Shown here: positions 332 through 34,477 of the stretch, one piece after another
Position numbering within the stretch: the stretch's first letter is position 1
Layout: every line of letters begins with the position of its first letter
Source of the DNA: Escherichia coli
GTDB taxonomy: Bacteria > Pseudomonadota > Gammaproteobacteria > Enterobacterales > Enterobacteriaceae
Direction: 5' to 3' (one strand)
Length of the DNA: 34,477 bases
Assembly (NCBI RefSeq): GCF_003334815.1
Contig: NZ_QOWO01000039.1
The notes under the pieces: model-generated
Told to the model about the DNA's origin: nothing
Databases searched by the model: none
Seen by the model: the letters and a program-made list of their open reading frames with translations, nothing else
Made by a program: the position numbers and the translations under genes

Positions 332-1027
332 TTAGCAGTCATCAATAATCAAGTAAGTTGCATGTACTGGTCCATGCACACCAACAACTTTGATCAGTTC
401 TATATCTGCAGTAGAACTTGGGCCTCCAATCAGATTGATACAGGAAGGCAGTCGTTGTCCTTCCTGAGCCATTTCATGAAGTTTTTGCGCAAGCTGAGCC
501 ACTCGGGGGAGAATAGTGCTTTTGCGTAAAACAAATAATGATGCTTCAGGCAAAAGGCTTACTGAGCGCCCACGTTCTGGTGCGGAGAATAAGACAATGC
601 CTCCTGATTCTGTCAGCCCATACTCAGCGAAAACGACACCAGTTTTTGCCTTTTCAGCAAGATGGATATTTTCATCGCCCTTCTCCGGATCCCACAGAGC
701 AGCGTCCATTTCTTTTTGTAGCAATGGCGTAATCCCTGTATCGACCAGTCGTTGATCGTTGCTGATAATGACTGGCCCGGAACCGAACTTCCAACAGATG
801 TCTAAGGCTGTTGATGGTGCGTTCTCAGGCGACACCAGAACACACTCGGCAAGCATCACTTCCGAGGCAAATTTAATAAACGCCTCACAGCGTTGGTCTG
901 ATGTCAACTCTGTTAAACGTGTCGTAGCCAGCGTATTTACAGGCTCCGGCATTGCTTCGGGAATATGTCTTACTGGTCTGCCAAGCTTTCTGGCGATCGC
1001 AACGAGAAATTCCTCTCTGTTTTCCAT
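332..1027 (-). CDS. lutC: Lactate utilisation protein C (LutC/YkgG family)
   Basis: 231-aa ORF, last gene of a tightly spaced lutA-lutB-lutC arrangement; conserved C-terminal block ...AEYGLTESGG..LFS..ERGRS.SLLPE.SLF.LRKSTI.PR... resembles E. coli YkgG as recalled from memory. Confidence 0.85.
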   Translation of the reverse strand: MENREEFLVAIARKLGRPVRHIPEAMPEPVNTLATTRLTELTSDQRCEAFIKFASEVMLAECVLVSPENAPSTALDICWKFGSGPVIISNDQRLVDTGITPLLQKEMDAALWDPEKGDENIHLAEKAKTGVVFAEYGLTESGGIVLFSAPERGRSVSLLPEASLFVLRKSTILPRVAQLAQKLHEMAQEGQRLPSCINLIGGPSSTADIELIKVVGVHGPVHATYLIIDDC

Positions 1028-1030
1028 AAA

Positions 1031-2446
1031 TTACCCCTCCTTCTTATGTCGCTTGAACCAACTACGGAAGCTTTCTCCATCAGGTGATGGCAGGTCTCTG
1101 GCTTCAGTCCATTCTTTTATCGCTCCAACACTAATCGGCGTTTTTCCTTTCCTGATGAACAGACGGGCTGTTTTGGCCCCAGCAACCATACCTACCTTCC
1201 ACAACGCCGGATGGCTGTTTATGTAATTGAATGCTCTGGTTATACGGCGTTCCGTTAATGGTGTGATTTCAGACTCTGCCATAACCTGGCGATGTTTTTG
1301 TATTAGCGTTGCCAGAGGTATTTTTACAGGACATACCCCATTGCAGGCAGTGCACAATGAGCAGGCATAGGGTAAATCCTTAAAGTCTTCATATCCACCA
1401 AGCAATGGGGAAATAACCGCACCGATTGGCCCCGGGTAGATTGAACCATAACCATGCCCACCAATCTGACGATAAGCCGGGCAGGTATTAATGCAGGCAC
1501 CGCAGCGGATACATCGCAATACATCGCTGAATTCTGAGCCGAGAATCTCTGAACGCCCATTGTCAACAATAACGAGATGGAACTCTTCCGGACCATCAAC
1601 ATGTCCTTCTTCTCTGGGGCCTGTAAGCCAGGTGTTATAACCTGTCAGTCTCGCCCCGACAGCACTCCTTGCAAGCATGGTAATCAGAACATCCACCTCC
1701 TGGAATGTCGGAGCAATACGCTCCATACCCATAACAGCAATATGTGTTTTAGGTAATGTGGTGCACATCCGTGCGTTGCCTTCGTTTGTAACAAGGCAGA
1801 CTGACCCTGTTTCTGCAACGGCAAAGTTACACCCCGTTACGCCAACTTCAGCACTCAGAAAATCTTGTCTGATTTTCTCACGGATGAACAATGTCATTGC
1901 TTCTGGAGTTTCAGGCCCGTCATACCCCAGATGTTCATGTAAAACTCTGCGGATTTGATGGCGATCTTTATGTATTGCCGGCACAACCACATGCGATGGT
2001 GGCTCATGTGCTAGCTGAAGAATATATTCCCCAAGGTCCGTTTCAATCACGGGTATCCCGGCTTTCTGAAGAACGGCATTCATGCCAATTTCCTCAGTCA
2101 CCATTGATTTGGATTTAACAACCTTCCTGGCGTTTTTTTCTTTCGCCACCTTCAGTATGTAACTGGTTGCATCCTCTCTGGTACGGGCAAAATATACATG
2201 CCCGCCATTCGCAGTAACCTTTTCGGACAATTGATACAAATAAGCATCAAGATTTTCCAGAACATGCCGACGAATCTGTTCAGCTCGTGAACGCCATTCC
2301 TCCCAGTGTCCCAGTTCATCAACCATTTTCTGTCGATTAGTCCCTATGCGCTCCTGTGCGTTAGCCACAGCTTTTCGCATGATCGGGTCCTGAATCTGAA
2401 TACGGATACGCTCTTTAAACCTGATATCACTTGTTTTCAAAGACAT
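1031..2446 (-). CDS. lutB: Lactate utilisation protein B (LutB/YkgF family), 4Fe-4S iron-sulfur protein
   Basis: 471-aa ORF with ferredoxin-type cysteine motifs CIRCGACINTCP and CSLCTACNGVCP; 3-bp gap to lutC and 10-bp gap to lutA. Confidence 0.9.
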   Translation of the reverse strand: MSLKTSDIRFKERIRIQIQDPIMRKAVANAQERIGTNRQKMVDELGHWEEWRSRAEQIRRHVLENLDAYLYQLSEKVTANGGHVYFARTREDATSYILKVAKEKNARKVVKSKSMVTEEIGMNAVLQKAGIPVIETDLGEYILQLAHEPPSHVVVPAIHKDRHQIRRVLHEHLGYDGPETPEAMTLFIREKIRQDFLSAEVGVTGCNFAVAETGSVCLVTNEGNARMCTTLPKTHIAVMGMERIAPTFQEVDVLITMLARSAVGARLTGYNTWLTGPREEGHVDGPEEFHLVIVDNGRSEILGSEFSDVLRCIRCGACINTCPAYRQIGGHGYGSIYPGPIGAVISPLLGGYEDFKDLPYACSLCTACNGVCPVKIPLATLIQKHRQVMAESEITPLTERRITRAFNYINSHPALWKVGMVAGAKTARLFIRKGKTPISVGAIKEWTEARDLPSPDGESFRSWFKRHKKEG

Positions 2447-2456
2447 TCTGTTTACC

Positions 2457-3176
2457 TCATCTGTGCATCAGGACTTCAGCAATATGCATCACTTTTACAG
2501 GATGCCCTTCACGGTTAAGCCGACCGCCGATGTTTAGCAGGCAACTGGCGTCAGCCCCGATAAGAAAATCAGGTTTAACATCCATAATATGCCCGACTTT
2601 CTCTTTCACCATTTCACCAGAGATCTCCGCCATTTTTACAGAGAATGTGCCGCCAAACCCGCAGCACGTTTCCTGAGCGTGAAACGGCAGTAGCTCAAGC
2701 CCCTGTACATTCTCAAGTAGCAAAAGCGGCTCTCTGGTTACACCCAGCTTACGGGAAAGGCTGCAGGAGGGATGGTACACAGCGCGACCATTGAGTTTTG
2801 CCCCAACATCTGTGATGCCAAGATGATTTACTATAAATGATGTCAAATCATGCAGGCGTTCAGCCACTTTTTCAGCTCGTGCCGCCCACTCAGGTTCTTC
2901 ACTGAGATAGCGAGCGTAATTTTTTATCGTGTAAGTGCATGACCCGGCAGGAGATACTACCGGCCAGTCATTCTCTTCCAGCGAAGATATGAGATTTTTC
3001 ATGCCCGGGATGGCATCACGAACATAACCGCCATTTATCGCTGGCTGACCACAACATCCCTGCTTTTCGGGGAAATGGACATTGCAACCCAATTGCTCCA
3101 GTAACAGCACACTCTTTTGTGCCATCCGGGATTTAAACGCATCACCAATGCAGGTGACGAAAAAGTTAACATTCAC
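2457..3176 (-). CDS. lutA: Lactate utilisation protein A (LutA/YkgE family), cysteine-rich Fe-S oxidoreductase subunit
   Basis: 239-aa ORF; N-terminus MNVNFFVTCIGD... and CCG-type cysteine motifs (GCCGQP, CCGFGG) typical of YkgE/LutA; first of the three lut genes. Confidence 0.9.
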   Translation of the reverse strand: MNVNFFVTCIGDAFKSRMAQKSVLLLEQLGCNVHFPEKQGCCGQPAINGGYVRDAIPGMKNLISSLEENDWPVVSPAGSCTYTIKNYARYLSEEPEWAARAEKVAERLHDLTSFIVNHLGITDVGAKLNGRAVYHPSCSLSRKLGVTREPLLLLENVQGLELLPFHAQETCCGFGGTFSVKMAEISGEMVKEKVGHIMDVKPDFLIGADASCLLNIGGRLNREGHPVKVMHIAEVLMHR

Positions 3177-3225
3177 AGAAATTTCTCCTGTTGATTAATA
3201 TTCCACGTCCTTTTGTTGTTTTTTC

Positions 3226-4782
3226 TCAGGCCATGAACAGGTGGTAGACAAGGCCTACTTTCAGTCCAAGAATAACAATATAAGCAAAGCAGTACTTCAG
3301 TGTTCCTGACATGATTACGCTGCCCTGACCATCCATACGGGTGGCTGAAACAGCGATAGCAATACTCTGAGGAGAAATCATTTTGCCGCCTGTTGCGCCA
3401 GATGTATTTGCGGCAGCCAGCCAGAGCGGGTCCACATGCAATTTTTCAGCCGCAGTAGTCTGCAATTTACCAAACAGAATGTTGGAGTTTGTGTCACTAC
3501 CAGTAACAAATGTACCAAGAGCGCCGATAACCGGAGCAATGAAGAGGTAGGCCCCACCAGTCAGATCCACAAGGCTCTGTGCCAGAGTGCCAATCAACCC
3601 ACAGACATCCATTACCGTTGCCATGGCAACAATCGCAGAAATGGCAATAATGGAGTTTTTAAGTTGTTTTACCGTGCTGACAAATACGTTTAACAGGCAT
3701 GACAGGGATGCTTTCTGTATCAAGCCGCCAATAACACTGGCAATGATAATCAGAACACCGGGGGTTGCGATCCATTCAATTTTCATCGACAGATTGCTGC
3801 CGTTACTCAGAGAGAAGGTGAGTGACGAGGCAATCTGAGACACTGCACTTTTTATCGTCGGGAACAGTGGAGAGCAAAGCAGAATGAACAGAAAGATCAG
3901 AATGTAGATTGAGCACGCACGTAACAACGCCCCACGAGAGTATGAAAGTGCGCTGGCGCTATCTGCTGAACTCTCAATAAGAAATTCAGGTTCTGTTTTT
4001 TCTTTACGGTTTTTTGCCATAAAGACTATAACGATCAGACTGACAAGACTTCCTGCGAAAGCCGGGAGCTCTGCGCCAAGATTAACAGCCACCAGATACT
4101 GAGGTATCAATGTGCTAATACCGCACATCAGGGTAATTAACCCTACGCCTCGTATAGCTTTCATACCTCCACCGATAATCGTGACGATAACGAAGGGGAG
4201 CAGAATGTTGAACAGTGCCAGCTGAAGAATAATCGTCCCGCTGAGTGTGGTTACAGGTAAATTAACTTGTTCAGCAAGCACGGAGACAGGTATACCGACT
4301 GCCCCAAACGCTGTAGGGACTGTATTAGCAACCAGTGATGCAATCGCTGCTTTTAGTGGGTTAAAGCCCAGTGCAATGAGTATACCTATGGGGATTGCTA
4401 CCGCTGTACCGTATCCGGCGGCCGCCTCAAGAAATCCGCCAAAACACCATGAGATAAGAAGAACCTGGATGCGTTTATCGTCACTAACGCTCGCCAGAAC
4501 ATTTCTCAGAATATCCATGCTTTTTGTCGCATTCATCAGGTTATAGCTGTAAATGGCAGCAAGGATGACAATCACAATCGGCCACAAACCTTTGATTGCG
4601 CCGTATACCACAGCAGATCCCATATCCATAACTGGCGTCTGCCAGAAAACCCCTCCAAGGATTAGCGTGAGCAGGAGAGTGCTAAGCACAGAATAGTGTA
4701 TGGGCATTTTGACTTTCAGAATCAAAATGATCATCGCCAGAAGGGGGGTAAGTCCCAGTAAAAAAAGCAGGTAATCGTGCAT
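3226..4782 (-). CDS. lctP: L-lactate permease (LctP family), polytopic inner-membrane transporter
   Basis: 518-aa highly hydrophobic ORF with multiple predicted transmembrane segments, directly upstream of lutABC on the same strand (49-bp gap); RBS aaggaa before the ATG. Confidence 0.8.
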   Translation of the reverse strand: MHDYLLFLLGLTPLLAMIILILKVKMPIHYSVLSTLLLTLILGGVFWQTPVMDMGSAVVYGAIKGLWPIVIVILAAIYSYNLMNATKSMDILRNVLASVSDDKRIQVLLISWCFGGFLEAAAGYGTAVAIPIGILIALGFNPLKAAIASLVANTVPTAFGAVGIPVSVLAEQVNLPVTTLSGTIILQLALFNILLPFVIVTIIGGGMKAIRGVGLITLMCGISTLIPQYLVAVNLGAELPAFAGSLVSLIVIVFMAKNRKEKTEPEFLIESSADSASALSYSRGALLRACSIYILIFLFILLCSPLFPTIKSAVSQIASSLTFSLSNGSNLSMKIEWIATPGVLIIIASVIGGLIQKASLSCLLNVFVSTVKQLKNSIIAISAIVAMATVMDVCGLIGTLAQSLVDLTGGAYLFIAPVIGALGTFVTGSDTNSNILFGKLQTTAAEKLHVDPLWLAAANTSGATGGKMISPQSIAIAVSATRMDGQGSVIMSGTLKYCFAYIVILGLKVGLVYHLFMA

Positions 4783-5360
4783 GTCATTTCCTTAAACGAA
4801 AACAAAGTCAGCATCATTACTGTGGTTATTGATAGTTTCCACGCCCTGTCGGACGAGAGTGTTTATTTATCAGGGGGAGAATGAGTATCGTCTCCAAAAT
4901 TGGGATGTTCTTATAAAGTATTTTTTAGTTTAAAAAATATAGCTGAATCGTTTCATTGTTATCTTCCATGAATAAATGTTATGAAATAATACTTTTTGGG
5001 TATTTTTTGTTTATGCGTGTAACACTTGTGTGCTATCCCGATATAACCTTAAGACTGGAGTTGCAACTGGAGCTCGTCGAAAATCAACGCCCAAATCCTC
5101 GACAAATGGAGAAAGAGAATGAGCAATATCACCAGGAATAGGTAAGCGTCAACGGGGATGAAATACGGGGATTACCGGAGTCAGAGCGTCTTGCCGTCAG
5201 GCAGCAGCGAAGCAAAGTGTTACTGACGTCACTGCATGAATGGATGGTGGAGAAGAATGGTACGCTGTCGAAAAAATGTAAGCGTCGTCTGAGTACCGTC
5301 TGGTCCCGAATCCAGGATCCTGTAACTTAAGCACCCACTTATTTTGCAGGTGGACACCTC

Positions 5361-5744
5361 ATGCGCGCTAAAGAAAGACTTCCCCGGAAACACTATTCCC
5401 CTGAATTCAAAATGGAACTGGTCAGGCTGGCTCTTGAAGAAGAAGGCAGTATTGCCGCACTGGCCCGGAAACATGACGTCAATGATAACCTGCTCTTTAA
5501 ATGGATAAGGCTCTGGCAGCGTGAAGGGCGGGTCTGTCGGCCCCGAAAAAACTCATCGTCGCTTCCTGCCCTGATACCCGTGCAGCTTCAGGCGGGCTCT
5601 TCTCTCCCAACCTTCGAACTACCATCCTGCTCTCCTCCCGCTACCTGCCACATAAAATGTCGGGGAGGAGAAATAACACTGACTCATCCCTCTGCTGAAC
5701 TCATGAGCACTGTCCTGCGCGAACTGATGCGGGGGCCTGTATGA
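5361..5744 (+). CDS. tnpA: IS66-family accessory protein OrfA (TnpA)
   Basis: 127-aa ORF, first in the IS66-type three-gene arrangement; its stop overlaps the orfB start (ATGA). Confidence 0.8.
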   Translation: MRAKERLPRKHYSPEFKMELVRLALEEEGSIAALARKHDVNDNLLFKWIRLWQREGRVCRPRKNSSSLPALIPVQLQAGSSLPTFELPSCSPPATCHIKCRGGEITLTHPSAELMSTVLRELMRGPV

Positions 5745-6088
5745 TAAATCTTCCCGCAGGCACAAAAATCTGGCTGGTTGCCGGTATCACCGATATGCGC
5801 AACGGCTTCAATGGCCTCGCCGCAAAGGTGCAGACCGCGCTGAAAGATGACCCGATGTCCGGCCACGTCTTCATCTTCCGGGGACGCAGCGGCAGTCAGG
5901 TAAAACTGCTCTGGTCCACCGGCGATGGTCTGTGCCTGCTGACAAAGCGACTAGAACGTGGTCGCTTCGCCTGGCCCTCAGCCCGCGATGGCAAAGTGTT
6001 CCTGACGCCGGCGCAACTGGCGATGCTGATGGAAGGTATCGACTGGCGACAGCCAAAGCGGTTACTGACATCCCTGACCATGTTGTAG
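5741..6088 (+). CDS. tnpB: IS66-family accessory protein OrfB (TnpB)
   Basis: 115-aa ORF translationally coupled to orfA; precedes the transposase gene. Confidence 0.8.
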   Translation: MINLPAGTKIWLVAGITDMRNGFNGLAAKVQTALKDDPMSGHVFIFRGRSGSQVKLLWSTGDGLCLLTKRLERGRFAWPSARDGKVFLTPAQLAMLMEGIDWRQPKRLLTSLTML

Positions 6089-6137
6089 CGCTCTTTATCC
6101 TGGTTGTCGCAGAATAAGCCTGGTAAAATACAGGCTT

Positions 6138-7672
6138 ATGAACGACACCTCTTCTGACGACATCCTTCTGCTGAAACAGCGCCTGGCCGAACAGGAAGCG
6201 TTGATCCACGCCCTGCAGGAAAAGCTGAGCAACCGGGAACGCGAAATAGACCATCTGCAGGCGCAACTGGATAAGCTGCGCCGGATGAACTTCGGCAGTC
6301 GTTCCGAAAAGGTATCCCGCGTATCGCGCAAATGGAAGCTGACCTGAACCTGCTGCAGCAGGAAAGCGATACGCTGACCGGCCGGGTGGATGACCCGGCA
6401 GTGCAGCGCCCGCTGCGTCAGACCCGCACCCGCAAACCGTTCCCTGAGTCACTCCCACGGGATGAGAAGCGGCTGCTGCCGACTGAGCCGTGTTGCCCGG
6501 AGTGCGGTGGTTCGCTGAGTTACCTGGGTGAGGATGCCGCCGAACAGCTGGAGCTGATGCGCAGCGCCTTCCGGGTTATCCGGACAGTCCGTGAAAAGCA
6601 TGCCTGCCGTCGGTGCGATCGCATCGTTCAGGCCCCGGCTCCTTCGCGCCCCATCGAACGGGGGATCGCCGGACCGGGGCTGCTGGCCCGAGTGCTGACC
6701 TCAAAGTATGCAGAGCACATACCGCTGTATCGCCAGTCGGAGATCTATGCCCGCCAGGGTGTAGTGTTGAGTCGTTCTGTACTGTCGGGCTGGGTGGATG
6801 CGTGTTGTCGTCTGCTGGCACCGCTGGATGAAGCCCTTCAGCACTATGTCCTGACCGACGGCAAACTCCATGCTGACGATATGCCTGTCCCGGTGCTGTT
6901 GCCGGGCAATAAGAAGACGAAGACCGGGCGCTTATGGACGTACGTTCGAGACGACCGCAACGCCGGATCAGCGCTGGCCCCCGCAGTGTGGTTCGCTTAC
7001 AGCCCGGACAGAAAAGGTATCCACCCTCAGACCCATCTTGCAGGCTTCAGTGGCGTACTGCAGGCTGATGCCTACGCCGGGTTCAACGAGCTCTACCGCG
7101 ACGGCCATATAAAGGAAGCCGCGTGCTGGGCCCATGCCCGCCGAAAAATCCACGATGTTCACGTCCGTACCCCGTCAGCCCTGACGGAGGAGGCGCTGAA
7201 ACGGATCGGCGAGCTGTATGCCATCGAGTCGGAGCTCAGAGGTAAAAGAGCAGAGGAACGGCAGGCAGTCCGGCACCAAAAAGTGCTGCCGCTGCTGGCG
7301 TCACTGGAGGGGTGGCTGCGGGAGAAACAGAAAACCCTCTCAAGGCACTCAGAACTGGCGAAGGCGTTCGGGTATGCGCTGAACCAGTGGCCGGCGCTGA
7401 CCCGCTATGCAGAAGATGGCTGGGTGGAGGTGGATAATAACATTGCCGAAAACGCCCTACGACTGGTCAGTCTGGGGAGAAAAAACTGGCTGTTCTTCGG
7501 CTCGGATCATGGTGGTGAGCGCGGTGCGTCACTGTACAGTCTTATCGGGACGTGCAAATTAAACGGCGTGGATCCGGAACGCTATCTGCATCATGTACTT
7601 GATGTCATCGCCGACTGGCCTGTGAACCGGGTGGGTGCTCTGCTCCCGTGGCGGGTTACTCTGCCTGCCTGA
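6138..7672 (+). pseudogene. tnpC: IS66-family transposase (TnpC) split by a frameshift near 6330-6347
   Basis: Track ORFs 6138..6347 (N-terminal coiled-coil/leucine-zipper-like segment) and 6332..7672 (zinc-finger-like CxxC...CxxC, catalytic core, C-terminal ...LLPWRVTLPA) overlap in different frames and together make one IS66-type transposase. Confidence 0.75.
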
Positions 7673-9802: not shown

Positions 9803-10465
9803 TTAAAATACTTCGGCTACAGGCATGCCTGCAATCTGCTCCCACTCCTTACGCTTTTCCTGAATCAGGCGAGGAAAGTCGACAGGGTAATCATATCCTC
9901 GACTTGCCATTGCGTGCATGGTGTTTGATGCTGTTTCTGGATGAGCACACCATGATGGAACAGGAACCATTGGCAGATTGATGTATTTCGTATGAATTTC
10001 CAGTTTTTTGTCGTCTGTTACAGTACGAGTGAAATTATGAATGTCAAAACCGATAACATCCATAATGTTGCCTGGATAGATACGGACATACAACATTGTG
10101 CCATTTTTAAGGTCAATGCCGAAATAAGCTCCCTGGGTTAAAGATAATCCCTCATACCCCTTCTCTGGAGAGTAGAAGCCTGACTCTTTTATTGTTTGTA
10201 CAACTTTTCTTATTTTTTCTCTCCTTGTTTTTGCACGTGAGTACATCCATATGCCTGGCGCAAGTAATAAGAACCAACTACCGAAAGTGACAACATAATC
10301 TTCGACCTTATTTCCGAAATAACGATCAGAACATAGCATTTCGGTAAAGCCTAATGCGCAGAACAGAAAAAAAGGTATTCCAAGAAAGAAATAAGCTTTT
10401 CTTAATACATAATAAAATAGCCACCAGGTTGGAAATCTGTCTGTTGTTTCTTTTTTAGCTTTCAT
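9803..10465 (-). CDS. excA: Inner-membrane protein at the ExcA (entry-exclusion) position of IncI-type transfer regions
   Basis: 220-aa ORF with two N-terminal hydrophobic segments, last gene of the minus-strand tra block directly after the DotA-like gene; assignment is positional. Confidence 0.45.
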
Positions 10466-31066: not shown

Positions 31067-31521
31067 TTTTTCCGGTTCTCCGGCTGCATGAAGCTGACCT
31101 GTAACAAGCCCGGATATTGATGGATTGTTGCTCTCCAGGCTGTCTGGGCTTCAATAAGTCTCAACGTATTGGAAAACGTCATATCCCGGACGTGAAGGTT
31201 GACTGGTAACGGCAGGCGGACACCATTGTAGTTAAACTGCATCCCCCTGACTCTGGCCAGTTCGTTCAGTAATTCAATTGCATCACCTTCCCAGTCAAAG
31301 GAAAGGCGATCGCTGTTAGCTGTCAGAAGATGAGACCCCGTTGAAACCGGAAGTTGGCCGGAAAACACACCTTTGTCCCATAATGTGTACTGAGTGTGCC
31401 GGGTAACCGCCACATCAGAGGCAGCACCGTAGTTACGCGGAACAGGAGTATGCTGAGAAGGGGAGTTGCAGCCAGCCAGAAAAAGGGCGGCAAGACACCC
31501 CGCAGGTATAATACGGTTCAT
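31063..31521 (-). CDS. traH: DotD-like lipoprotein (TraH-type)
   Basis: 152-aa ORF with lipobox (LFLAGC); about 395 bp of non-coding DNA upstream, probably holding the operon promoter. Confidence 0.55.
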   Translation of the reverse strand: MNRIIPAGCLAALFLAGCNSPSQHTPVPRNYGAASDVAVTRHTQYTLWDKGVFSGQLPVSTGSHLLTANSDRLSFDWEGDAIELLNELARVRGMQFNYNGVRLPLPVNLHVRDMTFSNTLRLIEAQTAWRATIHQYPGLLQVSFMQPENRKK

Positions 31522-31915
31522 AATAATTCCTGAGCAGTTAAATCAGAATGGGATATACCGGTGCTCCGGTACAGACAGGATGATGTTTGTTTCCGGCTAT
31601 ACTTGCGTTACCGGAAATAAATGCCAGTGTGGCCAGGTAAATAGCCTCATAGTTTACTGAAGGTGATTATTCCTGATACTGGCTGGTTGATGTGTCGTCA
31701 GACATAAAACGAATATGAGCGTAATCTTTAACGCTCCGCGCCGAATCGATCCATGATGGATGACTCGACGATTTATGAATCGAACGTACCGGCGCTTGTC
31801 CCTGAAACAGTTCCCGGCCCTCGTCCGGATAACCTGCAATTCAGACAGGCACATGTGCCCGTACACTCTTGTATCTTACTGAGTATATCAGAATTTATGT
31901 AAATTCAAATATCCT

Positions 31916-32500
31916 CTATGCCTCTTTGTTGTATTTTCCGTCAAGTATGAGCCGGGTACCATCGTAATGCATGATCAGGGCATCAAGGTACGCCGGTTTG
32001 AATTTCTTGCCGAGCCTATCTCTGGCCAGAAATGATAAACAATGATTATGTGTCATTATTACTATGTTCCTTTTATGAGATTCTCTTGCGATTGATTCAA
32101 GCGTCTTATAAAGATCATTATTGCAGTCTGATAAACTGTCCATAACGACGGGTTCTTTACCGGAGAAGAATTTTGCAGTTTGTATGGTTCTTACCGCATT
32201 GCTGGAGTAAATATCATATTCACTGAAGATTGTTGCGAACTTAATACCTTCCTGCTGTGCTTTCTCTGTACCGGTAATAGTGATTCCGCTTTTATCCGAA
32301 TAGCATGGCATATCTGAACGGTCGCAACGTTCTCCATGGCGGAAAAGGAAAATAACGGTGTTATCAGCATTAATTTCTTTTGCCTGTTCCAGGGTGATAT
32401 CGGGAAGCGAGCTTTTTGCTTTTGTCACTGCCGCTACCAGGAAAACAGAAAATAAAAGAATGAATGCTGTTTTTGAATAAGAAGAACGTGGTTTCATCAT
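31916..32500 (-). CDS. Periplasmic histidine-phosphatase-superfamily protein, Ais/PmrG-like
   Basis: 194-aa ORF with signal peptide and the RHG catalytic motif (FRHGERCDRS), later THNHC; size and layout resemble Ais-type small periplasmic phosphatases. Confidence 0.65.
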   Translation of the reverse strand: MMKPRSSYSKTAFILLFSVFLVAAVTKAKSSLPDITLEQAKEINADNTVIFLFRHGERCDRSDMPCYSDKSGITITGTEKAQQEGIKFATIFSEYDIYSSNAVRTIQTAKFFSGKEPVVMDSLSDCNNDLYKTLESIARESHKRNIVIMTHNHCLSFLARDRLGKKFKPAYLDALIMHYDGTRLILDGKYNKEA

Positions 32501-32525
32501 GTTATTTAAACTGAATATAAAAATA

Positions 32526-32547
32526 CCCCCGGGTTTAGTGCCGGGGG
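32526..32547 (-). terminator. Intrinsic terminator after the outer-membrane-barrel gene (stem cccccgg/ccggggg, then a U-rich tail on the minus strand)
   Basis: 7-bp GC stem followed on the minus strand by uauuuuuauauu; lies between the 32560 stop and the 32500 start. Confidence 0.55.
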
Positions 32548-32559
32548 CGGGGACAGTAA

Positions 32560-33762
32560 TCAGAAAGTGAACTGAAGTTGTGCCATTGCACCGTAATCGT
32601 GGTCAGTTCCTACCAGGCCGGAAACATCGATATGTACGACGTCAAATGGAGAGATACCAACGCCAGCGGTGAAGGCGCTTCCGGAGTCTGATGCCATGTT
32701 CTGACGATAACCGGCACGCAATTGCGCCCATTTCCATGCGTTAAATTCAGCACCAACACTTGCAAACTGACGTTTGCTGTCAGAAGTGAAGCCACTGGCA
32801 GGAGTCAGATCAACGTCAAGAGCAGTGGTAAACAGGTCATTATGCCAGGATACACCGGCGGTTGCCTGTGGACGAACTTTGAAGGTTTCTTTAAAGCCAT
32901 TGACGACTTTAGTATCAATACTGCGTGGAATGATGTTCTGGGCAACAAGACCGACAGTCCAGTTGTCATTCAGGTCTGTATAAGCACCAATATCGGCGTT
33001 GAATCCGTTTTTCGTGTTGTGGTACTTGTCACCGTCAAAATCGTCTTTGTCGTAATCACGAACCGTTACGTTGTAGTTAAACAGGTCCACACGCTGATAT
33101 TTTGGTGTGACGCCAAGAGACCATTTTTGTCCGGCCGTTTCCAGTTCTTTGGCAAATGAAATTCCGACGTCGGTAATTACAGCTGCACGCCCGAATGCGC
33201 GTGAGGTCAGGGCATTCTTATCGACGTCGGTAATTGTTCCATTGGCAACTTTGTCCAGATAATCCAGGTCTGCATCGTTTACTTTTCCGTTTACGCTGAC
33301 TGTTCCGTAAGACTTGACCATAAGGGCAAACGGCAGAGTGTCATTTGCCATGGCTGCTACAGCTGATGCACCTACCTGAGCATCTGCATTGATATTGCGG
33401 AATTCCTGCAGACGATGTTTAAGATTTGCCGCTGCCTGTTGTACGCCATGCTGGTTATCTACAGCACTGTCAAACAAATCCCAGTCATCTTTAACATCAT
33501 CAGCTTTATTTGATACATCATCAGGATCAGCAACTTGTGCCCCAACAGACGGCAGAAGAAGGCTGAAATCATCATTGCTGTTGTGCTTTGTCAGTAAAGC
33601 CGGGTTTGCCAGAGGTGCCACACCATAATGGGAAGATGCTACCCCGGTGCCACCCATTGCATCGTTACGCGCTTCAAAATATGACGTCGCTGCTGCAGCG
33701 TTAAAGGAAAATAATACAGCAGATGCAATGATGGTGCGGGTAATATGATTTTTCTTCATCAT
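32560..33762 (-). CDS. Outer-membrane beta-barrel protein (signal peptide, C-terminal ...LQFTF)
   Basis: 400-aa ORF with signal peptide MMKKNHITRTIIASAVLFSFNAAAA, many alternating hydrophobic/polar strands and a terminal Phe; sits where traF would be in IncI naming but is not verified. Confidence 0.55.
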   Translation of the reverse strand: MMKKNHITRTIIASAVLFSFNAAAATSYFEARNDAMGGTGVASSHYGVAPLANPALLTKHNSNDDFSLLLPSVGAQVADPDDVSNKADDVKDDWDLFDSAVDNQHGVQQAAANLKHRLQEFRNINADAQVGASAVAAMANDTLPFALMVKSYGTVSVNGKVNDADLDYLDKVANGTITDVDKNALTSRAFGRAAVITDVGISFAKELETAGQKWSLGVTPKYQRVDLFNYNVTVRDYDKDDFDGDKYHNTKNGFNADIGAYTDLNDNWTVGLVAQNIIPRSIDTKVVNGFKETFKVRPQATAGVSWHNDLFTTALDVDLTPASGFTSDSKRQFASVGAEFNAWKWAQLRAGYRQNMASDSGSAFTAGVGISPFDVVHIDVSGLVGTDHDYGAMAQLQFTF

Positions 33763-33847
33763 TTAATTTCCTGTTTATCAGAATTTAGACAAAACAACGC
33801 TATGACACGGATGTGCCGTAAATTTTTACTTTGGTACTATCTGGTAT

Positions 33848-34414
33848 TTACCAGGGTAATAAAGACGTATTAAATAAGCTAACAGGTAGTATTTGCCCTG
33901 TAATAAGGTTTCCGGCAAGGCCAGGTCTCAACGTAACGCGTCGCAAAGACATTGTTGTATTCTGCCTGGTTGTATATTCAGTTAACCATTTTCTTTTTTC
34001 ATCGTTCAGAAGTGTTGGTGATAATGATAGTGCCGGATATATTACAGAGCCATTTATTTCTTTTTCCTGTCTCAATATTACCCCGCAATATTCTCTTTTC
34101 GTGTTTCCTGCGAAGGGGAAACTATGCCAGAAAATAACTTCAGTGTTGCTGCTATCATTAATAAGCATTCTGAAATTATGAGCAGTATCTGGCCATTCAC
34201 CGGACAACGCTATCGGATAGTTTTCATGGCCATTCAGCCAGTCCGGATTGAGATTAAAACATTCAGCAAGATGTTCGAGAGCGTCAACTGAAAGATAGTC
34301 TGCAAGTCTGGCCGGGTCCTGTATTACCGTGGAGCGGATATTCCATGGCGACAGCAATGTTGCCAGTAATGGCGCATTTATATCATGCGACAGCATGATG
34401 GGTAATGACTCCAA
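33848..34414 (-). CDS. Hypothetical protein upstream of the tra block; start uncertain (TTG at 34414 or internal ATG)
   Basis: 188-aa track ORF on the same strand as the tra genes; no recognisable motif. Confidence 0.3.
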   Translation of the reverse strand: MESLPIMLSHDINAPLLATLLSPWNIRSTVIQDPARLADYLSVDALEHLAECFNLNPDWLNGHENYPIALSGEWPDTAHNFRMLINDSSNTEVIFWHSFPFAGNTKREYCGVILRQEKEINGSVIYPALSLSPTLLNDEKRKWLTEYTTRQNTTMSLRRVTLRPGLAGNLITGQILPVSLFNTSLLPW

Positions 34415-34477
34415 CTTATTGATAGTGTTTTATGTTCAGATAATGCCCGATGACTTTGTCATGCAGCTCCACCGATT

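Follow-up and report, generated by a model that had tools for sequence, protein, structure and literature searches.

[quoted passage not shown] 2000, cited in PMC6112013 and PMC4288162), and according to the account of that work given in PMC6112013, R64 is transferred without traEFG. When the IncI1 plasmid pESBL was analysed by TnSeq during transfer to Escherichia coli K-12 on solid medium, TraF, TraE and TraG were non-essential, with values of 1.00, 0.93 and 0.79, respectively, and the general conjugation cluster was found to run from traH to trbC (PMC4288162). The IncM plasmid pCTX-M3 carries an MPF_I T4BSS without traEFG (PMC6112013). At high cefotaxime, traF mRNA rose 30- to 80-fold with traL, traI, traM and pilS (PMC5712592), and this co-induction with other tra genes places traF in the transfer regulon. 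The TraF of the F plasmid, a periplasmic thioredoxin-like pilus-assembly protein, has only its name in common with IncI TraF; its MPF_I homologue is TrbB, and the MPF_I profiles of the study concerned include none for IncI TraF (PMC4027160). The Pfam TraF_2 description and labels such as 'F pilus assembly', which was the original pESBL annotation (PMC4288162 Table 2), are therefore name-transfer errors. The original R64 paper and an IncI1 review (PMC8139525) aside, we found no assignment of function or fold in the literature on IncI TraF.

The gene and its dispensability have thus already been published, and the barrel nature of the protein is implicit in its database classification. What is added here is the placement of TraF in the FadL/PorV fold with a hatch motif, corrected names, a traE-traF module that the IncI plasmids share with ICE-like elements, and a related chromosomal group located between zur and dusA. 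We hold the statements on identity and fold with very high confidence.

Identity and organization of the traF locus

We analysed a window of 34,477 nucleotides of E. coli DNA (assembly GCF_003334815.1, contig NZ_QOWO01000039.1), in which a first-pass annotation, made from the sequence alone, had marked positions 32560-33762 as the gene of an outer-membrane beta-barrel protein. These positions agreed exactly with the ORF list and enclose an intact ORF including its stop codon; the annotation gave no strand, and the ORF lies on the minus strand. We found that the ORF is traF of an IncI1-type conjugative plasmid, a gene named long ago, and this identity with R64 traF had been missed. The protein was 100% identical over 400 aa to WP_061348425.1 ('conjugal transfer protein TraF'; NZ_CP024481, NZ_LT985321). 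Window positions 31500-34400 showed 100% identity to E. coli and Salmonella plasmids of the IncI1/IncI-gamma type, where the annotated order is traE, traF, a histidine-phosphatase gene (R64 traG), traH, traI and traJ, and the order traE-traF-traG-traH beside a pil/shufflon module was seen in both NZ_CP024481 and NZ_LT985321. The TraF proteins of IncI1 and IncI-gamma plasmids share with the window copy the length of 400 aa, 99-100% identity and the location between traE and traG/traH. As far as the papers citing it describe R64/ColIb-P9 TraF, it is the same gene with no difference in the protein, whereas the upstream traE is cut by IS1 in the window.

Pfam TraF_2 (PF13729) matched residues 50-318 over the whole model (positions 1-264 of 264; E 8.6e-73, 245 bits), and an exhaustive search returned homologues in 1,262 clusters at 50% identity, which together exclude a chance ORF. 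Homologues were present in 1,936 PLSDB plasmid records, among which 1,786 are typed as conjugative; 990 of 5,426 complete E. coli genomes (~18%) also carry one, nearly always on a plasmid. The features of the locus are given below in window coordinates.

34401..34477, no strand assigned: IS1 end that interrupts traE; an IS1A transposase is annotated beside the same junction in NZ_LT985321
33848..34400, minus strand: traE 3' remnant, the conserved upstream partner gene of traF, truncated in the window
33769..33772, minus strand: Shine-Dalgarno-like AGGA, 6 nt 5' of the traF ATG, read from the sequence
32560..33762, minus strand: traF coding sequence, 400 codons plus stop, ATG start; IncI-type TraF, Pfam TraF_2
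33688..33762, minus strand: predicted signal peptide, residues 1-25, from the hydrophobicity profile and the sequence; cleavage after AAA placed by eye
33568..33687, minus strand: N-terminal hatch-like segment, residues 26-65, three short helices by DSSP, pLDDT ~97
33598..33606, minus strand: codons AAC CCG GCT; the encoded N53-P54-A55 do not vary across the family and make up the 'NPA' motif of FadL-type hatches
32563..33567, minus strand: predicted 14-stranded beta-barrel, residues 66-400, including loops L1 (residues 79-124, acidic, helical), L2 (161-187) and L3 (234-247)
32563..32592, minus strand: last strand, ...AMAQLQFTF, with an aromatic final residue and alternating hydrophobics
32515..32548, minus strand: terminator-like hairpin and U-run, 12 nt 3' of the traF stop
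31916..32500, minus strand: traG, the 3' neighbour of traF, histidine-phosphatase family, LPS core heptose(II)-phosphate phosphatase type

The IS1/traE junction lies at 34400/34401: alignments to intact plasmids end at window position 34400, and the final 77 bases of the window are the IS1 end, with a terminal repeat, GGTAATGACTCC..., that we take to be that of IS1. This insertion cuts traF off from the promoters upstream. An intact traE encodes 274 aa (locus L001). The first-pass annotation had put the gene at the head of the transfer block; this is roughly right, although traF is the second gene of the traE-traY row and the block required for transfer begins only at traH (PMC4288162). It had also credited traF with its own terminator, of which the structure could be confirmed while the function stays putative. 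The GC-rich hairpin has an 8-bp stem with 7 GC pairs (32548..32525, minus strand), followed by AUUUUUAUAU, and its folding energy was -16.9 kcal/mol with a modest z-score of -1.98. A GC-rich hairpin of other sequence occupies the same place 3' of traF in three diverged alleles (L003, L006 and L011). Since traG starts only 59 nt past the traF stop, termination at this putative site may be partial. TraG matched NCBIfam NF011945 with E 2.2e-88 and 295 bits, the cutoff being 142. It is an IncI1-specific companion and not a member of every traF locus: it is missing from L003-L005, and the TraG of an IncK2/Z plasmid (L097) was only 38% identical to that of the window.

TraF is predicted to be a 14-stranded outer-membrane barrel

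The N-terminus of TraF, MMKKNHITRTIIASAVLFSFNAAAA followed by TSY, bears out the signal peptide reported in the first-pass annotation, with a basic N-region, a single hydrophobic stretch (the sole hydrophobic 19-mer of the protein, at residue 11, KD 1.49) and an A-A-A motif of the A-x-A type before the cut; the predicted cleavage after AAA is our own reading of the sequence, with no signal-peptide predictor behind it. The C-terminal Phe, also reported earlier, was present (...AQLQFTF), the family consensus ends in ...QLxFTF, and the protein has no cysteine. This C-terminal signature presumably serves as the BAM beta-signal, as is general for outer-membrane proteins.

An alignment of 87 sequences, built from a representative search, was used for AlphaFold2 modelling of TraF. 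In the resulting model (pLDDT 91.3, pTM 0.85) residues 1-25 are disordered (pLDDT <50), residues 26-65 form three short helices, and 14 long strands follow, in line with the many amphipathic strands noted in the first pass. A helical hairpin (residues 83-121) separates strands 1 and 2, and a helix (163-173) separates strands 3 and 4. Foldseek gave TodX, TbuX and FadL as the best matches of the model. The model thus has the 14-stranded barrel of the FadL superfamily and strongly supports the prediction that TraF is a monomer-sized barrel of the FadL/TodX/PorV/BamG superfamily. The earlier outer-membrane barrel call, against which failure to predict a barrel would have counted, was in this way upheld, and it can be narrowed to the 14-stranded barrels of the FadL/PorV/BamG superfamily. 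The nearest AlphaFold database structures were all uncharacterised 'TraF'-labelled proteins, mostly from marine Gammaproteobacteria, followed by PorV/PorQ, DUF5723 and FadL-type entries.

At the sequence level the relationships were more distant. A direct search of PDB chains with TraF gave no match, and the family profile gave only marginal matches confined to the N-terminal region: it reached PorV with E 6.6e-4 and CymD, TbuX and TodX with E 0.002-0.04, the alignments spanning residues 24-74. N53-P54-A55, invariant in the TraF family (alignments A1 and A2), was aligned with the NPA of PorV, suggesting that residues 26-65 form a hatch-like segment, which may lie within the lumen. Pfam Toluene_X (PF03349) did not match TraF even at E<=10, and hhalign of the A1 profile with E. 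coli FadL showed no similarity (probability 2.8%), so that TraF falls outside FadL/Toluene_X as a sequence family. The NCBIfam PorV/PorQ model PorV_fam matched with E 8.4e-15, its 55.2 bits lying below the cutoff of 90; T9SS_OM_PorV (25.9 bits, cutoff 250) and PorP_fam (15.8 bits, cutoff 90.55) were likewise below cutoff, and Pfam PorP/SprF gave E 2.4e-5. Because Toluene_X and FadL were not matched and the PorV and PorP matches were below cutoff, we regard TraF_2 as its own sequence family inside the FadL/PorV fold superfamily; TraF as FadL or PorV proper was ruled out at the sequence level by the same results.

The FadL/Toluene_X family carries long-chain fatty acids or hydrocarbons by way of a lateral opening formed at a kink in strand S3. 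The FadL, TodX and TbuX channels (PDB 1t16, 3brz and 3bry) are 12-18% identical to TraF and have a hydrophobic groove, which in FadL captures the ligand, whereas the long loops L1 and L2 of TraF are acidic; unlike them, TraF has no link to genes for fatty-acid or hydrocarbon degradation. PorV (PDB 6h3i_F) is a T9SS substrate shuttle, but the scores of TraF for PorV models were below cutoff. A T9SS is not known from Enterobacterales, and neither the window nor the related loci showed a T9SS gene; naming TraF a T9SS protein is a mis-annotation. BamG of Bacteroidota BAM complexes (PDB 9hj3_F, 9hjm_F and 9n2d_B) belongs to the same fold superfamily and differs from TraF in phylum and context (for NCBIfam BamG, E 0.0022 and 17 bits, where the cutoff is 250). 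Homology to F-plasmid TraF was ruled out by the beta-barrel fold and by TrbB being the MPF_I homologue of that protein (PMC4027160).

Genomic context and distribution of TraF and TraE

Related loci were scanned with one genome per species. IncI-complex plasmids kept the order rci-traE-traF-(traG)-traH, with one lineage lacking traG. This fixed traE-traF-traG/traH position settles the question of synteny raised in the first-pass annotation, which had left room for unrelated cargo: the gene does not wander freely among these plasmids. Where TraF identity was at least ~47%, a traE-like gene usually lay directly 5', giving 15 mobile-element loci in total. These comprise IncI-like plasmids (L003-5 and L011-12) and ICE-like loci. 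Three of the latter (L006, L018 and L079) carry a type IVb pilus, shufflon and rci together with a coupling-protein-type gene (TraG-D_C) and DUF2859; in four others (L016, L017, L020 and L025) a tyrosine recombinase adjoins a large unassigned ORF. No IncI T4BSS gene was found in any ICE-like traE-traF locus, and several have traE-traF without pil genes within 10 kb. The IncI2 plasmid R721, with a thin pilus, shufflon, rci and a VirB-type T4SS, has neither TraF nor TraE. An obligatory tie of traF to the thin pilus and shufflon was ruled out by R721 and the pil-less ICE-like loci.

A second group of about 55-59 loci from as many species, with 39-50% identity, occupies a fixed chromosomal slot, plsB-lexA-dinF-zur-[gene]-dusA-qor-dnaB-tyrB, in Erwinia, Pantoea, Mixta, Buttiauxella, Kluyvera and Atlantibacter. 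In these zur-dusA loci traE and transfer genes were absent, and a Zur-box-like motif stood beside the zur start in only ~25 of 59. More distant members adjoin flagellar genes, citrate synthase, a two-component system or housekeeping genes. Collectively, TraF belongs to a family of widespread chromosomal outer-membrane proteins, and conjugative elements from at least two T4SS classes have acquired one branch of this family, which is paired with TraE.

The cytoplasmic protein TraE carries no signal peptide. Searches of Pfam, NCBIfam and PDB gave no match for it beyond a faint one to RelB (ribbon-helix-helix) in 2 of 11 members, and TraE is a candidate for DNA binding. That TraF travels with TraE as a pair on mobile elements is strongly supported, and the pairing is specific to such elements, since the chromosomal branch lacks TraE.

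Conservation and surface charge

Among 107 close TraF alleles, identity to the query was highest in the hatch-like segment (0.87), intermediate in the strands (0.81) and lowest in the predicted extracellular loops (0.67), which were more variable (p 1.4e-7). The ranking was alike family-wide, where the hatch-like segment, at 0.52, was again the most conserved part. The hatch and the lumen-facing strands were the most conserved and the loops the most variable, a pattern compatible with conservation of the gating core and diversification of the surface. Loops L1, L2 and L3 were consistently acidic (median net charge -8, -4 and -5), and the mature protein has a net charge of about -29.

Of the six genes traE-traJ, traF had the lowest pN in comparison with an IncK2/Z plasmid (0.075) and one of the lowest in comparison with another IncI-complex lineage (L003; 0.163); dN/dS was ~0.04-0.09, values that are rough upper bounds only, as dS was saturated. 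In the IncK2/Z comparison TraF was 86% identical, compared with 38-65% for TraE, TraG, TraH, TraI and TraJ. These comparisons indicate that traF is under strong purifying selection, and TraF exceeds several essential transfer genes in conservation. Rapid evolution of TraF as a surface protein under diversifying selection was ruled out, as its 74% identity lies within the 53-80% of its neighbours and, in the IncK2/Z comparison, none of the other five genes is conserved as well. The low pN, the occurrence in 1,936 plasmid records and 990 of 5,426 genomes and the co-induction with tra genes (PMC5712592) together argue that traF is functional.

Possible functions of TraF

TraF matched no Dot/Icm family model, while its neighbour TraH matched DotD; neither homology to Dot/Icm-type T4BSS components nor a requirement in transfer was thus found for TraF. 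That TraF lies outside the IncI T4BSS and that DNA transfer does not need it is strongly supported.

We give an even chance to the reading that TraF is an accessory, hatch-gated passive surface channel or binding barrel on conjugative elements. That TraF is exported by way of a cleavable signal peptide, has the sequence features of outer-membrane proteins and, in the confident model, forms the 14-stranded barrel with the conserved N-P-A hatch-like segment at its N-terminus, its long, acidic and partly helical loops lying on the predicted extracellular side, is strongly supported. On the channel or binding reading, a putative small amphipathic or cationic ligand would reach or cross the outer membrane through TraF, as in its fold relatives, and TraF would serve an envelope or fitness function in element-bearing cells instead of building the mating channel. 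A channel or binding function is suggested because the hatch and barrel interior are conserved rather than the loops, and because relatives sit in plain chromosomal contexts without a partner machine. The zur-dusA slot and the unrelated neighbours of distant members further point to a function independent of conjugation. The acidic, not hydrophobic, loops disfavour a plain fatty-acid channel and point instead to a cationic or amphipathic ligand, or else to a basic protein partner. Against a channel, the best sequence-level neighbours of TraF, PorV and PorP, bind proteins rather than small ligands, a sequence-level link to FadL is absent, and the position beside transfer genes together with co-induction would also fit a role in conjugation that laboratory matings do not reveal.

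The main rival is a docking barrel resembling PorV or BamG, in which TraF would bind an envelope protein by its loops or barrel seam. The partner could, for example, be a component of the thin type IVb pilus, belong to the T4SS outer-membrane complex or lie on the surface of the recipient, and TraF would aid mating outside standard crosses. Here the sequence-level support is better, the closest models being PorV/PorQ (NCBIfam, 8.4e-15) and PorP/SprF (Pfam, 2.4e-5), although the PorV_fam score of 55 stays below the curated cutoff of 90; and BamG shows the same fold as the subunit of a protein machine. Docking would explain the conserved location of traF, between pil/shufflon and transfer genes in IncI-complex plasmids and in L006, L018 and L079, and its co-regulation, its mRNA rising with traL, traM and pilS (PMC5712592), and variable surface loops would suit partner- or host-specific contacts. 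The presence/absence pattern and the genetics weaken it, however: R721 has a thin pilus, shufflon and T4SS without TraF or TraE, pCTX-M3 has a T4BSS without TraF, neither conjugation nor pilus genes adjoin the chromosomal and distant homologues, traEFG is dispensable for R64 transfer in the account given by PMC6112013, and TraF was dispensable in the pESBL screen on solid medium (PMC4288162). Overall we consider docking possible but rather unlikely.

We regard as improbable that TraF admits a hydrophobic or cationic environmental signal to which TraE responds by tuning pilus and transfer genes. The traE-like gene lies directly 5' of traF in the 15 mobile-element loci, which are of two unrelated element types, the chromosomal branch without TraE makes the pairing specific to mobile elements, and the lack of a signal peptide and the faint RelB match in 2 of 11 members would suit a cytoplasmic responder. 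But TraE has no significant family or structure match, its DNA binding being a reading of sequence, neither traE nor traF affects transfer in the published screens, and in the window IS1 has destroyed traE but left traF intact; nor does adjacency alone demonstrate a functional link. In a bolder form, which we think quite improbable, TraE and TraF would be a portable sensing module common to IncI plasmids and MPF_G-type ICEs, the acidic-crowned barrel admitting a cue such as a host lipid, bile component, polyamine or metal and TraE adjusting pilus and transfer expression. If true, it would account for the strong conservation of the pair in nature despite its silence in laboratory matings.

Little credence can be given to a surface decoy, receptor or exclusion factor, in which the acidic loops would alter binding of thin pili from other donors, phages, colicins or cationic peptides to the donor surface. 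The loops are variable and strongly acidic, FadL is annotated as the phage T2 receptor, and the enzyme encoded by the neighbouring traG, of the LPS-core phosphatase type, would remodel the donor surface as well. However, TraF is among the best conserved proteins and has diverged no further than its neighbours, so that an arms race is not apparent; ExcA, located in the window at 9803-10465, is the protein to which IncI exclusion is already attributed; and PADLOC defence models matched none of TraF, TraG and TraE.

The first option of the first-pass annotation, a structural outer-membrane component of the IncI T4BSS, is suggested by the position at the start of the traE-traY row and the database name 'conjugal transfer protein' and is highly improbable, being in our view refuted by published genetics (dispensability of traEFG in R64 as cited in PMC6112013, and of TraF in pESBL, PMC4288162) and opposed by the absence of TraF from IncM plasmids of the same T4BSS class such as pCTX-M3 (PMC6112013), by the missing Dot/Icm match, and by the presence of traE-traF in ICE-like loci without IncI-type T4BSS genes and of TraF homologues in plain chromosomal contexts.

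Significance for IncI-complex plasmids

The understanding of the T4BSS itself is unchanged by these results. Database names of TraF, 'F pilus assembly' and 'T9SS PorP/SprF', are misleading, and the placement in the FadL/PorV fold, the accessory traE-traF module and the Erwiniaceae core-chromosome relative define a narrower set of experiments. IncI-complex plasmids rank among the main vehicles of ESBL and AmpC resistance genes in E. coli and Salmonella, and TraF would be an extra surface-exposed barrel in the outer membrane of every carrier cell. The finding is otherwise an ordinary one; it draws interest because very common resistance plasmids encode a strongly conserved but unexplained surface protein, a possible surface marker or target on plasmid-bearing cells.

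Conservation of traF and its local context

The IncK2/Z plasmid NZ_CP134667 was compared gene by gene with the IncI-type locus L001. TraF was 86% identical between the two, whereas the flanking TraE, TraG, TraH, TraI and TraJ were only 38–65% identical, indicating either unusually strong constraint on a 'dispensable' gene or recombinational exchange of the traF segment. The features on either side of traF in the window, together with the equivalent hairpins in three other alleles, were as follows:

31916-32500, (-), traG, a histidine phosphatase with a signal peptide
32505-32562, hairpin following traF
33848-34477, traE, its 5' end cut off by an IS1 copy
L003:9201-9270 (IncI-like plasmid), hairpin following traF
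L006:9195-9265 (ICE-like locus), hairpin following traF
L011:4014-4090 (IncI-like plasmid), hairpin following traF

Upstream, the IS1 terminal repeat begins at 34401, and the truncation has removed about 91 N-terminal codons of traE. The insertion separates traF from any promoter upstream of traE. Downstream, all four alleles, which share only 67–74% identity, have a GC-rich hairpin that lies 10–14 nt beyond the stop codon of traF. The stem sequences were not alike among the four, and a clear U-run followed the hairpin in the window copy only. Together these observations suggest an RNA 3'-end or stability element conserved by position.

The adjacent traG product matched the model for LPS core heptose(II)-phosphate phosphatase (NF011945) at 2.2e-88, well above the cutoff. 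Because the PilV adhesins of IncI thin pili bind recipient LPS (PMC7690428), TraG, read from its sequence as a donor-side LPS-core phosphatase, could change self-recognition. According to two studies (PMC6112013, which cites Komano et al., and PMC4288162), traG is dispensable for transfer. It was also missing from one IncI-complex lineage, and in the IncK2/Z plasmid its product was the one with only 38% identity.

Metabolic cargo at the opposite end of the window

At the end of the window away from traF we observed a block of metabolic cargo:

332-7672, metabolic cargo, comprising a lactate-utilisation cluster on (-) (lutB, a lutA-like gene, an unassigned 231-aa ORF and an LctP-family permease) and, adjoining it, a complete IS66-family element on (+) (tnpA, tnpB and transposase)
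9803-10465, excA, beyond the IS66-family element

The lutB product matched TIGR00273 at 7.7e-218. Such lactate-utilisation/IS66 cargo appears unusual on an IncI backbone.

Database names and chromosomal relatives of TraF

TraF alleles that are identical or nearly so were found to bear several database names, namely 'conjugal transfer protein TraF', 'type IX secretion system membrane protein PorP/SprF', 'opacity protein-like surface antigen' and 'F pilus assembly'. The type IX secretion and F-pilus names found no support in the tests of this analysis.

Third among the AFDB matches was an 828-aa entry from the fungus Beauveria bassiana (A0A0A2VXJ2; 38% identity to TraF), labelled 'tRNA-dihydrouridine synthase A'. 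The entry has the appearance of a TraF-like gene and dusA joined in one gene call, matching the bacterial synteny of Erwiniaceae, and is probably bacterial contamination in the fungal assembly.

In the chromosomal loci, zur and the TraF-like gene are divergently oriented, and in approximately 25 of 59 loci their intergenic region carried a Zur-box-like motif, TGTTATnnTATCACA, some 20 nt away from the start of zur. Taken with the acidic loops, this arrangement gives a hint that the chromosomal TraF-like branch may have a function involving metals.
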